Source: Escherichia coli
GTDB taxonomy: Bacteria; Pseudomonadota; Gammaproteobacteria; Enterobacterales; Enterobacteriaceae
Length of the DNA: 64,000 bases
Reading direction: 5' to 3' (one strand)
Assembly: GCF_003790525.1 (NCBI RefSeq)
Contig: NZ_CP033635.1
Shown in pieces: positions 13,467-17,624 of the stretch. The position numbers were made by a program, and so were the translations under genes. The first letter of the stretch is position 1. Each line of letters begins with the position of its first letter. Under the pieces are notes generated by a model, which saw only the letters and a list, made by a program, of their open reading frames with translations, was not told where the DNA came from and did no database searches.

Positions 13467-13766
13467 TTACTTCCTGCGTTTATCCTGCTTTGTATGCCCG
13501 TGCTGAATGCCCCGCAGTGGATCTTCTTTTTTCAGGTCGATCCCCATGTCCGTTAGTGTTTTTGTGGCGGCGGTTCTTATGGCACAAATCAGGTCTCTTT
13601 CCGGTTCCCGGGTTATGGTTGCCTTCCGGATGCATGCCGTTCGTCGTTCCGTTACATACTGACGCGCTTCATCACTTGCCGCCTGTTTCAGTAACTCACC
13701 CCAGCGATTAGCCGCCCGTCGCCATAAACCTTTCGCTTCCAGTTCTTCCGCTTTGTCATCATGCAC
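13467..13766 (-). CDS. PerC-family (Pch-like) putative transcriptional activator, ~100 aa from the MVHDD Met
   Basis: MVHDDKAEELEAKGLWRRAANRWGELL... matches the PerC-family N-terminal signature as I recall it. A paralogue lies at 17352-17624. Confidence 0.55.
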   Translation of the reverse strand: MHDDKAEELEAKGLWRRAANRWGELLKQAASDEARQYVTERRTACIRKATITREPERDLICAIRTAATKTLTDMGIDLKKEDPLRGIQHGHTKQDKRRK

Positions 13767-13883
13767 CATAAGCATAATCCCATTGATACCTGTTAACTCT
13801 GAATGGTTGGTTTCTGTTCTTTTGATAATTTCCCGCATAGCTTATTGTATGACAGTACTGTCCCACAATAAGGAGTTGCACGC

Positions 13884-14174
13884 ATGAGAATGACTAGGCA
13901 CAAAAAACAGATTCTTGAACTCTACAAACCTGAGTATCGCGATTGGGTGCGGGTGGAGGCCGGAGATCCGCCTTTTGATGTTCGTGGTGTGACAGTGCTG
14001 CTCTATGGTTCCGAATATCGGCGATATCACATAGAGGCAACACGAAGGACGCTAAACGCTATGGTTCGTGATAAGTTGCTGGAGCGTGTGAAAGTCCGTG
14101 AGCCACGTTTTGATGTGCGTATTGGTGGCGATGGTGCGCATTGCACGGTAATCCGCTATGGCCTGGTAAGGTAA
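13884..14174 (+). CDS. Hypothetical protein, 96 aa, basic
   Basis: Clean ORF (GTG start) with an upstream GGAG. No recognisable family. Confidence 0.4.
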   Translation: MRMTRHKKQILELYKPEYRDWVRVEAGDPPFDVRGVTVLLYGSEYRRYHIEATRRTLNAMVRDKLLERVKVREPRFDVRIGGDGAHCTVIRYGLVR

Positions 14175-14276
14175 GCCATCGGGTAAATCAGATGATTAAA
14201 TCACCAGAATGTAAATTTACATTCTGCCAGCCACCAGCTACCCTCCTCAAAATTGAGGACCCTTTTTATCAACTGG

Positions 14277-14558
14277 TTACCGCCGCAACCGTTCCGGCTT
14301 CTTCCACTGATAAGTGTTTTTCGCGCTCTCCTGATACATCGCCACGCGTCGACGGTATGCCAGCAACTCTAGTACTCTGATTCGTATGTCGCGCATATCC
14401 ACGCCGTTAAGCTCAATACCATCACGGCGCATTACATCAGCAACAACACGCACATAATTTTCGGCGGTCACGCTGTCCGGCTGCGTGGCCTGTTCGTCAT
14501 GCTGCTGGCTGATTCCGGTAACGCGGCGGATTAATCCCAGTAGTTCGACTTCTGTCAT
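14277..14558 (-). CDS. Hypothetical protein, ~93 aa (MTEVELLGLIRRVTGISQQ...)
   Basis: The ORF-track version (159 aa) reads through the cos copy. The internal Met at 14558 is the plausible start. Confidence 0.4.
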   Translation of the reverse strand: MTEVELLGLIRRVTGISQQHDEQATQPDSVTAENYVRVVADVMRRDGIELNGVDMRDIRIRVLELLAYRRRVAMYQESAKNTYQWKKPERLRR

Positions 14559-14594
14559 TGTGCCCCCATCGCTCTGATAGTCTGGTGTCGTCGG

Positions 14595-14780
14595 GTCCTT
14601 TCCGGCATGTGGACCCGTTACGGGGCGTCGACCTCGCGCGTTTTCACTATTTATGAAAATTTTTCGGGATCCATGTCCGGTTTCTCTGCAAGTTAACCAT
14701 ATGAAAAATATAAAAACATGCTTTCCATGAACCGGACATGCGCAAAAAACAGACACTAAAACCGGACATCGAACCAGTTA
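14595..14780 (+). other. Lambda-type cos site, copy A: cosQ-like GGGTCCTTTCCGG, cosN GGGGCGTCGACCT and a cosB with three CCGGACAT repeats
   Basis: Near-identity to the lambda cos junction (…GGGTCCTTTCCGG…GTTACG|GGGCGGCGACCTCGCGGGTTTTCGCTATTTATGAAAATTTTCCGG…) recalled from memory. ATGTCCGG at ~14672, CCGGACAT at ~14732 and ~14762. Confidence 0.65.
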
Positions 14781-14837
14781 ACCGAAAGTGTGCACAAATC
14801 ACATTCATTGCTGCGAGTGATTAACAAGTTATCGGCT

Positions 14838-15408: not shown

Positions 15409-15432
15409 AAAAGCCGGATTTCTCCGGCCTTG
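15409..15432 (-). terminator. Hairpin GCCGGATTTCTCCGGC plus T-run on the minus strand, downstream of the gpD-like gene
   Basis: Stem-loop followed by TTTTTTT when read on the minus strand. A similar module occurs at 17327-17350. Confidence 0.4.
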
Positions 15433-15502
15433 TCTCAGATGGTTTTCAGTATGCGATAGATGTCGCCGTCATCGCCCTGGTTTGTGCCATCGTTCCCCCT
15501 GC

Positions 15503-15838
15503 TTATCGGGCCAGCGGCTGAACGGATACGCCGGAACCCGCAAAGGCGGCGCATTTTTTCGCATCGGTGTCGACGCTCTCAGGCCAGTTAACGGCGGCAA
15601 TATTGAATATCCCCGTCTTGTAACACTGTGCTGATTTCTGCTTTGACGTGTCCACAGGGTACGAGGTCAGATAAACAGCCTTGCCAGATTCCTTACCATC
15701 CCACGCCTTAAACTCGCCATTGTCTGCCAGCATCAGCGGGGTAAATTCCTGAATAACGCCAGCATCAGCGGCAAAATGTACCAGCGTCGTGGATACCTGT
15801 TGGCTGCCTGAAAATAACTCAATGTATGGAGCGTCCAT
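15503..15838 (-). CDS. Lambda gpD-like head decoration protein, 111 aa
   Basis: Shared motifs with lambda gpD: TPLML(A/D), AWDG, YK(T/S)G(I/T)F, WPE, AFAG. Confidence 0.75.
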   Translation of the reverse strand: MDAPYIELFSGSQQVSTTLVHFAADAGVIQEFTPLMLADNGEFKAWDGKESGKAVYLTSYPVDTSKQKSAQCYKTGIFNIAAVNWPESVDTDAKKCAAFAGSGVSVQPLAR

Positions 15839-15849
15839 AGAATCCCCCG

Positions 15850-16905
15850 TTAAGCAATTTTGACGGTAACAAATTTGCGAATATCTGCCGGTACAGGCTG
15901 CGGTGCGCTGTGCGTCTGCACGTACTCAATCGCCGGATCGCCGTCCTCAATCCAGTTTTTCGGGTAGTACATGTTTTGCGTTGCGCCCGTTCTTACCGCT
16001 TCCTGATCCATAATCGCACCATATGCCACCAGCCCTTTATTGTTGGTGTTACCCAGGACCAGCAAATCAGGCTCAAGGAAATATTTTTCGGTCCCGTCGC
16101 TGTCAGTGTATTTGCCGGAATAGACGATAAGGGCCAGATCACCAAGATAGCCTTTAAAGCTCACCACTTCGCCCAGGTTTTTACAGGCCAGCTCGGCGGC
16201 GGATTCTGATCCACGGGAAAGATCGTACAGTTCACGGAATTTTTTAAAGCTGCGTAATGTGCGCCATACCTCACCGCCCATAATCATGACGTTGGCGGGG
16301 CAACCTGCCTGATCAGCATAAAGCTCGATGTCATAGATTGGGTCGTGCATGTCTTTATCCTGCTGGGACCATTTTTTACCACTGGCCTGCTGTATGATGC
16401 AGTTTTCCGGTATTTTCCAGTCGATTTCATAGCGTTCTATGCCTTCGCCCTCAATGATGTTTTTTCCGGTCGTTACCGCATTCACCGCCAGCCATTCCAC
16501 GCGCGCCTTAATGGCGTTTATCTGGCGGCGCATGTTGCCAGTAATCAGGCGCATACGGCGGTAAGTTGGATCGTTAAGCTGTGCCGGATCTTCTCCATCC
16601 ATGCGCATGATGGTCTTTGTTGGATCGATTTCGTGCTTTGGCTTCATGTAGCCTGGTTTAATCGTGCTGGTTTCGTACCCTTTATCGCGCTGGACCTGAC
16701 TACCCACCATAGGAGAACAGAACGCTGACATCGTAACCTCTTCAATGTCCAGGGTGTCCAGCATGATGTTTTGGGTGTTGAAGGTCGCCACGTTCGGGAA
16801 AAACAGCGTGGTAAACAGCGGACTAAATTTATATTCCGAAATATCCCCGCGATTCAGGTACGCGAAAAGCTGGTTAGTTGTAAGTGCCTTTGCTTTGCCT
16901 GTCAT
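15850..16905 (-). CDS. Lambda gpE-like major capsid protein, 351 aa
   Basis: Extended collinear similarity to lambda gpE: F(S/D)PLF..LFF, PGY(M/V)KPKHE, DP..L.DP.YRR.R, KW…DKD..DP.DDIE.YA, LRSFK, SYKG..GD.A.VVYSG.Y, VLGNT..GL..YG, YPKNW…GDPA.E. Confidence 0.85.
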   Translation of the reverse strand: MTGKAKALTTNQLFAYLNRGDISEYKFSPLFTTLFFPNVATFNTQNIMLDTLDIEEVTMSAFCSPMVGSQVQRDKGYETSTIKPGYMKPKHEIDPTKTIMRMDGEDPAQLNDPTYRRMRLITGNMRRQINAIKARVEWLAVNAVTTGKNIIEGEGIERYEIDWKIPENCIIQQASGKKWSQQDKDMHDPIYDIELYADQAGCPANVMIMGGEVWRTLRSFKKFRELYDLSRGSESAAELACKNLGEVVSFKGYLGDLALIVYSGKYTDSDGTEKYFLEPDLLVLGNTNNKGLVAYGAIMDQEAVRTGATQNMYYPKNWIEDGDPAIEYVQTHSAPQPVPADIRKFVTVKIA

Positions 16906-17111
16906 TATTCACCTCCGTGAACCTGATTGATACCCAGCGCCGCACGCAAATAGGTGCGCACCTGCCAGCCTGTTGACGGCTCAACCATCGCCAGCGGATC
17001 AAGTCCTGCCGCAATGCCTGCTTTTACATTCTGCTGGTGGCGTTCCTTGAGCGCCTCCACGATGTCGGGGCTTATGTAGACCGTCACCCCGCCTTTTTTC
17101 TCTTCTGCCAT
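16905..17111 (-). CDS. Hypothetical 68-aa protein, translationally coupled (ATGA) to the capsid gene
   Basis: Its stop overlaps the capsid start. Position suggests a scaffold or assembly accessory. No family recognised. Confidence 0.4.
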   Translation of the reverse strand: MAEEKKGGVTVYISPDIVEALKERHQQNVKAGIAAGLDPLAMVEPSTGWQVRTYLRAALGINQVHGGE

Positions 17112-17351
17112 AGTCAGAAATTCCTCTTTGACTTAAAAAATCATAACTGGATGTTCATCCAGTCCTGATTATAATCATGATTGCATTTTGCGCAACAATA
17201 TTGAGTTACGTTGCAAATTATGAAATGATTATCCCGATCATGTGTGTCAGTTCACCATAAAAAACCTCGTATACAAAAGCCCCATAAGCCCCCTGTGACC
17301 TTATCGGGCTTTTTTTAGGCGTAAAAAAGCCGGATTGCTCCGGCTGTGTGC

Positions 17352-17624
17352 TCACTTCTGCGGGTAGTTGCGCCATATTGCTTTGCCAATACCAGCTATC
17401 CCCATTTGTTTTTCAGTGCGATTAACTGACCTTTTCAGAGCGCCTAAATCATCCGGCGGCTCCGGTGGCCTCTGTGCCTTACGGATACATTCCGCGCGAC
17501 GCATTGCCACCTGTTCGCGCTCCTTGTCTGTCTCCACCAGCCTCATAACTTCACCCCATCGCGCCGCCGCCCTCCGGTAAAAGCCTTTTGCCTCGAGTTC
17601 CTCCGCTATGCGGTCATGTACCAT
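17352..17624 (-). CDS. PerC-family (Pch-like) paralogue, ~91 aa from the MVHDR Met
   Basis: MVHDRIAEELEAKGFYRRAAARWGEVM... The start 10 bp after the ssb stop supports the MVHD start rather than the longer ORF-track version. Confidence 0.55.
   Translation of the reverse strand: MVHDRIAEELEAKGFYRRAAARWGEVMRLVETDKEREQVAMRRAECIRKAQRPPEPPDDLGALKRSVNRTEKQMGIAGIGKAIWRNYPQK

Follow-up and report, generated by a model that had tools for sequence, protein, structure and literature searches.

What do two distantly related copies of a small regulatory gene do on one phage satellite? The question is raised by an island of ~11.2 kb in a 64,000-nucleotide stretch of Escherichia coli DNA (contig NZ_CP033635.1, assembly GCF_003790525.1; hereafter the window), in which a first-pass annotation had noticed two genes of the PerC/Pch family on a putative satellite and had noted that members of this family activate virulence genes belonging to the LEE (locus of enterocyte effacement) in enteropathogenic and enterohaemorrhagic E. 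coli (EPEC and EHEC). The carrier is indeed a phage satellite, a phage-inducible chromosomal island (PICI), and we refer to its two PerC-family genes as copy A, which lies in the accessory end of the island, and copy B, which directly follows ssb (Table 1). We think it fairly probable that both encode small host-directed regulators that remodel repressive nucleoprotein or regulator complexes, and that neither acts as a LEE activator. What we computed or observed here comprises the family assignment, the orthology and gene order, the layout of the operon, the purifying selection, the predicted fold and a link to the ANR proteins.

Both proteins fall well within the PerC family (Pfam PF06069), as their N-terminal motif had suggested: the gathering score is 22.6 bits, and copy A reaches 78.3 bits (E = 5.5 × 10-22, profile positions 2-82 of 90) and copy B 134.6 bits (E = 1.5 × 10-39, positions 1-89 of 90). 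Strain CM2 has an island that shares 99% identity with the one in the window, and its RefSeq record labels the identical proteins WP_021558663 (copy A) and WP_045147597 (copy B) "PerC family transcriptional regulator". The residues that are invariant in the family (G14, R17, R18, A19, R22, W23, R36, R43 and C46 in copy B numbering, read from alignments of 48 and 45 sequences in which both copies are included) are all present in the two proteins. Copies A and B share 49% identity over 76 residues (BLASTP E = 7 × 10-22), hence their resemblance is not due to chance, and a comparison of the two genes shows saturation at synonymous sites (pS 0.78), in keeping with the earlier view of two copies, about half identical, that diverged long ago. 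Both genes are under purifying selection, as dN/dS (ratio of nonsynonymous to synonymous substitution, Nei-Gojobori) lies between 0.1 and 0.5: it is 0.21-0.53 for copy B compared with four homologues and 0.11-0.15 for copy A compared with two.

The starts of the two genes were correctly placed at the methionines of the MVHD motif, and the limits first given for copy B (17352-17624) are exact; those for copy A were three bases short, because position 13766 is a GTG (Val) codon and the ATG lies at 13769, which yields a protein of 100 aa in agreement with the RefSeq call. The ATG of copy B lies 6 nt past a Shine-Dalgarno sequence, GGGGGTGA, and 11 nt past the ssb stop codon, and distant homologues keep only the ...TTATGGTGCATGAT start of copy A. 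The longer open reading frames (ORFs) that contain the two genes were rejected: the one starting at 13838 has ATA in place of its ATG in strain STEC308, the one starting at 17744 extends into ssb in a different frame, and the N-terminal extensions of both (long forms of 123 and 130 aa) give no Pfam match above threshold and add no domain. When sigma-70 promoters were sought with strict criteria, none appeared directly upstream of copy A or copy B.

Copy B can be assigned to a characterised group. With references taken from annotated records (Sakai PchE, PchD and PchA, EPEC PerC and EcCIMP1_025), it is 74% identical to PchE of O157:H7 Sakai and 73% to the EcCI042 homologue, compared with 46% to EcCIMP1_025, 43% to both PchA and EPEC PerC, and 36% to PchD. 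In sequence it thus sides with PchE rather than with group 1 (PchA/B/C), group 2 (PchD) or EPEC PerC. Its position agrees with this placement. Copy B follows ssb in a PICI, as pchE does in the ECs1586-ssb-pchE unit, a correspondence in gene order for which the transcript has been mapped in O157 only (PMC7369912), and a perC gene likewise follows ssb in Sp7/OI-51, EcCI042, TUM1886 and AR_0085. Judged from its sequence and position, copy B is an orthologue of PchE, a group 3 Pch. Of 5,426 complete E. coli genomes, 1,277 contain copy B-like DNA. The adjoining ssb shares 98% identity with ECs1587, in contrast to the 74% between copy B and PchE (window 17352-18045 versus positions 7852-8545 of the Sakai Sp7 locus, L008); this difference could reflect a recombination breakpoint at the gene boundary or a much faster evolution of the regulator.

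The anatomy of this region separates copy B from the genes that follow it. An intrinsic terminator lies just beyond the copy B stop codon, and its hairpin is invariant in EcCI042, TUM1886, AR_0085 and Sakai Sp7; EcCI042 and Sp7 have an extra 74-aa gene between perC and the terminator. Further on, at 17145-17177 on the minus strand, a perfect TATAAT with a poor -35 element is directly followed by a hairpin (GACTGGATGAACATCCAGTT) and by ATGATTTTTT, just upstream of the operon for the 68-aa protein, the major capsid protein and the decoration protein, and this arrangement of TATAAT and leader hairpin is kept in EcCI042, TUM1886 and AR_0085. Given the terminator 3' of copy B and the separate TATAAT and leader of the capsid operon, copy B closes the replication/ssb unit and lies outside the morphogenesis operon. 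The leader hairpin itself resembles a leader terminator and is a possible antitermination control point for the late operon of the PICI.

Copy A presents a different case. It is 46% identical to Sakai PchE, 44% to the EcCI042 homologue, 33% to EPEC PerC, 32% to EcCIMP1_025, and 31% to both PchA and PchD, so that no characterised member of the family exceeds 46% and, as a result, nothing functional can be transferred to it from any tested member. An assignment to group 2 as a PchD-like protein was rejected at 31% identity. The C-terminal (W/F)R(N/R)Y motif is missing from copy A, which ends in a basic tail, and by its sequence copy A constitutes a separate, uncharacterised PerC subgroup.

Copy A is half of a small cassette. 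Together with a divergently oriented 96-aa ORF it forms a unit of ~1 kb, and the intergenic region common to the two genes holds a perfect palindrome that occurs once in the window (0.02 occurrences expected by chance) and is kept in four PICIs, which makes it a candidate operator. The 96-aa protein has no match in Pfam, PHROGs, NCBIfam or PADLOC, and in PDB it matches only designed repeat proteins, with no matched stretch significant alone. The cassette is present in about 55-67 of the 5,426 genomes (~1%), many of them from Shiga toxin-producing E. coli (STEC) and from livestock; among 55 carrier genomes, 38 have a copy A with 99% identity or more, and the DNA of the whole cassette is 90-99% identical in most. 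In three further annotated loci it forms the final module ahead of the attachment site, and its host PICIs, some with and some without a PerC gene after ssb (slot 1), differ in integrase, capsid module and site of integration. Its occurrence at the distal PICI end in the tqsA, tRNA-Pro/yejO and clpS-side sites supports the mobility of the cassette, and EcCIMP1_025 lies at a comparable distal position. A more distant island (L015) also carries two PerC genes, one after SSB-ProQ and, at the far end, another that shares 85% identity with copy A; hence the two-slot layout recurs, without being universal.

AlphaFold2, run with family alignments, gave for copy B a model with a mean pLDDT (predicted local distance difference test score) of 85 and helices at residues 5-13, 16-29, 33-50, 60-74 and 79-83, and for copy A a model with a pLDDT of 77 that shares the first four of these helices and has a tail, at 93-100, predicted as disordered. 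Both are thus predicted to be all-helical proteins of ~10 kDa in which residues 1-50 form a three-helix unit of TPR/MIT-like appearance. No helix-turn-helix was found in either copy, and Foldseek searches of PDB and BFVD returned nothing significant apart from family members. The N-terminal unit provides a link to the ANR proteins. Sub-threshold matches to ANR_neg_reg cover residues 5-52 in both copies and were also obtained for 30 of 48 relatives, and PerC residues A7, E11, A19 and W23 are spaced like A10, E14, A22 and W26 of the ANR consensus (PMC4983702). A profile search of 1.84 billion cluster representatives showed PerC to be a small family (324 clusters at E ≤ 10-3) in which many relatives of 56-72 aa consist of the N-terminal module alone; all ten short relatives tested pass the Pfam PerC threshold, and one (P0202) passes the ANR cut-off as well, at 33.8 bits. 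On these alignments we conclude that the N-terminal module of PerC is, distantly, homologous to the ANR proteins; an ANR-like similarity of EcCIMP1_025 had already been raised by the authors who described EcCIMP1 (PMC11773190).

Published work shows that regulatory activity varies between PerC subgroups (PMC11773190, PMC6265319). The expression of ler and espA and adherence need only group 1 Pch, with groups 2 and 3 dispensable for ler/espA (PMC6265319). When PchE is over-expressed, csgD/curli, lpfA1 and eae are repressed, and there is strong induction of flhDC/fliC and of motility (PMC6265319, PMC7369912). The pchE gene is transcribed on a tricistronic ECs1586-ssb-pchE mRNA that starts 10 nt upstream of ECs1586 (PMC7369912), and its expression is basal and drops upon SOS induction (PMC6265319, PMC7369912). 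As for mechanism, PchA relieves silencing by H-NS/StpA/Hha (PMC4764244). That satellite PerC homologues could regulate host genes, as the first-pass annotation suggested, is a reasonable idea and not a new one: it has been stated for PICIs (PMC6092414) and shown for PchE (PMC6265319, PMC7369912).

Placed beside these data, copy B is the final cistron of an (80 aa)-ssb-perC unit, its translation closely following that of ssb, and the unit ends at the conserved terminator. By analogy with PchE of O157, copy B is probably expressed weakly as long as the island stays integrated, and it likely lowers csgD/curli and adhesins and raises flhDC and flagella; in short, a behaviour like that of PchE is the most probable. 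For copy A, the likeliest reading is a second regulator that modulates the host, acquired independently and travelling with the 96-aa ORF. Both most likely act by remodelling repressive complexes, either those of H-NS/StpA/Hha, as PchA does, or those with H-NS or AraC-type partners, as ANR proteins do, and classical operator binding seems less likely. The expression pattern, target genes and molecular partners of the two proteins are what we infer, and for both alleles the favoured role is drawn from homologues. Several observations weigh against this reading. Because 26% of residues differ between copy B and PchE, mostly in the C-terminal half, the targets of copy B may not be those of PchE, and the PchE phenotypes themselves come largely from plasmid over-expression (PMC6265319, PMC7369912). 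A purely protein-protein mechanism is not established, since PchA did not co-precipitate with H-NS and its authors reported an association with DNA by chromatin immunoprecipitation (PMC4764244). The position of the promoter of the copy B unit is presumed, because an extra 107-aa gene lies between the origin and the 80-aa ORF. The TPR/MIT similarity is generic to three-helix units, the copies score 18.9 and 16.6 bits against a curated cut-off of 32 for the ANR family (NCBIfam NF033650), and no AraC-family gene is annotated in the island.

The activation of LEE was the role that the first-pass annotation implied; on that view the satellite would spread virulence activation, through PerC- or PchABC-type activation of LEE and ler, among attaching and effacing E. 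coli. The two copies share the Pfam family of the known activators, some PICI-encoded PerC homologues are stated to activate LEE (PMC6092414), ler rose more than 2-fold on PchE over-expression in one study (PMC7369912), and STEC isolates are frequent among the carriers of the copy A cassette. We nevertheless consider this role very improbable. Copy B is far closer to PchE than to PchA or PerC, copy A is only 31-33% identical to these two, and neither gene groups with the group 1 Pch/PerC proteins, to which their identities are 31-43%; the genes are carried on a PICI, and group 3, like group 2, is dispensable for ler/espA. The PICI homologues that were tested proved inactive or repressive, with no effect of the PerC-like genes of EcCIEDL933 and EcCICFT073 on LEE1 fusions (LEE1-lacZ) and repression, or silencing, of LEE1 by EcCIMP1_025 (PMC11773190). 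Moreover, the nearest carriers of the island were isolated from birds (chicken, black kite), and the window shows no LEE.

If the host is not the target, the PerC genes may serve the satellite, and here the position of slot 1 matters. A slot-1 PerC that activates or de-silences the capsid/packaging operon, or that modulates helper genes, would be a life-cycle regulator comparable to the late-gene activators Delta of P4 and Ogr of P2 and not a host-directed accessory gene. In agreement with this, slot 1 is always found between the replication/ssb genes and the morphogenesis operon, even where the packaging modules are unrelated (lambda E/D with Rpp in the window versus an HK97-like capsid with terminase in Sp7); it is linked to ssb, the ssb-less PICIs examined also being without a slot-1 PerC; and the capsid-operon promoter, with its perfect TATAAT, poor -35 and conserved T-run leader hairpin, could need a factor. 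Temperate phages, too, have PerC-domain genes right after a replication gene (orf40 of SfV), and such genes also occur in virulent Salmonella and Klebsiella phages of ~70 kb. On the other hand, pchE mRNA is present without induction and falls on SOS or prophage induction, the opposite of a late activator (PMC6265319, PMC7369912); functional PICIs, including EcCIMP1 and the island of O145:H28, lack a slot-1 PerC; copy A sits in the variable accessory end, outside any life-cycle operon; and our literature search gave no paper that assigns PerC a role in the PICI cycle. We judge this explanation unlikely, although of the alternatives it is the one that we would give most weight. A broader version, to which we attach slightly less weight, holds that the PerC proteins are a conserved satellite/phage module, an ANR-like three-helix adaptor co-transcribed with ssb that serves the element's own biology, with copy A and its 96-aa partner as a new accessory module. 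If so, the primary job could be, for example, to relieve silencing of the capsid/packaging operon, to set its timing or to interfere with helper regulation; the effects on LEE, curli and flagella would be side effects, and the proteins would not be virulence cargo at all. Finally, copy A and the 96-aa neighbour could form a self-contained module, either a regulator/anti-regulator pair or a phage-interference cassette, in which PerC-like regulation of the host is incidental. The pair occurs together in all four annotated copy A PICIs, moves between PICI lineages and attachment sites with the high sequence identity described above, and encloses the conserved palindrome. PADLOC matches neither protein, though, more distant copy A-type genes (L014, L015) have different neighbours, and the 96-aa protein belongs to no recognisable family; we therefore give this possibility little credence. 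The remodelling of repressive host complexes by both proteins remains our preferred reading.

The island lies in an E. coli chromosomal backbone (asr, ydgD, mdtIJ, a split tqsA, pntAB), where it is inserted in tqsA and spans 12366-23592 between 26-bp direct repeats. Fragments of tqsA, the exporter gene for autoinducer-2, are found at 12158-12322 and 23751-24626, one on each side, and the CM2 record likewise lists tqsA as two pseudogene pieces; because the island cuts the gene in two, TqsA is not intact in carriers of PICIs at this site. From the integrase side, the island encodes a tyrosine integrase, an AlpA-type helix-turn-helix protein, Icd-like and HicB-like proteins, the RgdR homologue and a RepA-family helicase. 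RgdR is a reported regulator of type III secretion and motility whose RGD motif is reported to be important for activity (PMC3378721), and the homologue in the window has RPGD in its place. Just 3' of repA, at 18650-18860, iterons containing GTGAG (AAAGTGAGTAGTAAAAGTGAG...) stand on either side of an AT-rich stretch, which is the expected replication origin of a PICI. The 107-aa ORF, the 80-aa ORF and ssb come after the iterons, followed by copy B; between copies B and A, which thus do flank the capsid and packaging module, lie the genes for the 68-aa, major capsid, decoration, Rpp (redirecting phage packaging) and 93-aa (PHROG-1561) proteins, and the accessory end with copy A completes the island.

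Table 1. Coordinates in the window of the two PerC genes and of other features of the island
Feature	Position	Strand	Evidence and remarks
Copy A, 100-aa PerC-family protein, divergent subgroup	13467-13769	-	Pfam PF06069; att-distal accessory region (slot 2)
Copy B, 90-aa PerC-family protein, PchE (group 3 Pch) orthologue	17352-17624	-	Pfam PF06069; last gene of ssb operon (slot 1)
ssb	17635-18045	-	Pfam SSB; BLASTP 98% identity to Sakai ECs1587; 11-nt gap to copy B
80-aa ORF, homologue of Sakai ECs1586	18042-18284	-	78% identity, E = 5 × 10-39
Intrinsic-terminator hairpin AGCCGGAGCAATCCGGCT and T-run	17328-17345	-	Terminator scan; 7 nt past copy B stop
96-aa ORF, divergent from copy A	13884-14174	+	Beside copy A in CM2, STEC308, O145:H28 and 06-00048
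Perfect 10-bp palindrome ACAGTACTGT	13852-13861	.	Within the 115 bp that separate copy A from the 96-aa ORF
68-aa ORF, lambda-E-like major capsid and lambda-D-like decoration genes	15503-17111	-	Pfam Phage_cap_E, E = 2 × 10-49; HDPD, E = 4 × 10-17; PHROGs matches
Rpp homologue, 144 aa	14838-15272	-	phmmer against PDB 6hlk RppC, E = 4.3 × 10-32
RgdR (ECs1581) homologue, DUF4222 protein	20261-20548	-	Alignment with Sakai ECs1581; directly upstream of RepA helicase gene
att direct repeat, 26 bp	12366-12391	+	Island end toward tqsA-5'; exact repeat AATTAACTACACCATTAACTACACCG
att direct repeat, 26 bp	23567-23592	+	Integrase end; second exact copy of AATTAACTACACCATTAACTACACCG

These features, namely an integrase, an AlpA-type regulator, a replicase with an adjacent origin, att repeats, Rpp, a size of ~10-15 kb and no tail or lysis genes, are the criteria by which we recognised a PICI, and EcCI042 occupies the same tqsA site and is syntenic with the island in the window. 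By its gene content, including Rpp, and by synteny the island is therefore assigned to the Gram-negative PICIs of cos type, and among these to the EcCICFT073/EcCI042 kind. The Rpp homologue shows a weak N-terminal similarity to Nu1/TerS. That the PerC-like proteins might be disguised Rpp proteins was considered and rejected, as neither copy matches any PDB chain and the actual Rpp homologue is the 144-aa protein; a PADLOC scan of both copies and the accessory ORFs gave no match. A 308-aa ORF at 20774-21700 on the minus strand, taken from a mechanical list of ORFs, overlaps small annotated genes on both strands, is not called by RefSeq and is probably spurious.

Outside PICIs, the PerC-domain gene orf40 of phage SfV lies directly after the replication gene and before a gene for a protein like phosphoadenosine phosphosulfate (PAPS) reductase (locus L016, 3222-3710), and pchD in SpLE1 of Sakai adjoins ibrA, which encodes a PAPS reductase, and ybdM (locus L011, 2943-5146). 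The likeness of the two neighbourhoods suggests that pchD was derived from such a phage module.

Much of what surrounds these genes is already published, namely the PerC family, its carriage by PICIs and the phenotypes of the orthologue, and the RefSeq annotation is correct. The additions made here are small: the placement of copy B in group 3, the recognition of copy A as a subgroup whose two-gene cassette is mobile, the pattern of two slots and sequence support for the relationship between PerC and ANR. Current understanding of PICIs is unchanged, because PerC variants were already listed among the accessory genes of E. coli PICIs by Fillol-Salom et al. (PMC6092414). The practical value lies mainly in annotation: copy B can be described as PchE-type, with published phenotypes of less curli and adhesion, more motility and no LEE activation, and copy A as a PerC subgroup spread by several PICI lineages.

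Among known systems, PchE (ECs1588, on Sp7, O-island 51 or EcCIEDL933 of O157:H7 Sakai) is the closest to copy B, which has the same length and matches it over the full 90 aa, in the same gene order (ECs1586-like, ssb, perC), with the same terminator and likewise on a PICI. The differing residues are found mostly in helix 3 and the C-terminal half; Sp7 has the 74-aa gene after pchE, which the island in the window lacks, and a full HK97-type capsid and terminase set in place of lambda E/D and Rpp. EcCIMP1_025 resembles copy A as a PICI-borne PerC-family protein of the att-distal accessory region, but it is less similar to copy A than to copy B and belongs to another PICI lineage, which lacks capsid genes and has a P22-like helper. 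PerC of EPEC (perABC of pMAR2) and PchA/B/C of EHEC share the Pfam family, the N-terminal A-x3-E...G-x2-RRA-x2-RW motif and the R..C motif with both copies, whereas their C-terminal MG...(W/F)R.Y motif is present in copy B only, copy A having its basic tail instead. Their carriers are the EPEC adherence factor (EAF) plasmid, where perC stands beside an AraC-family gene, or lambdoid prophages, as opposed to a PICI, and the documented cases of LEE1/ler activation concern these proteins and not group 3. The ANR family (Aar, Rnr, Cnr) is alike in the weak match over residues 5-52, in the A/E/A/W spacing, in the three-helix architecture and in the short intermediates that fit both models. ANR proteins, however, are smaller than 10 kDa, consist of three helices only and accompany genes of the AraC family (AraC/XylS), whereas the two copies (100 and 90 aa, 4-5 predicted helices) extend beyond that unit by a Pro-rich linker and a further one or two helices, do not reach the ANR cut-off and lack an AraC partner within the island. 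If the N-terminal module of PerC is indeed an ANR-like adaptor, then the mechanism of these proteins may be approached through their partners, H-NS/StpA/Hha or regulators of the AraC type, rather than through operators.

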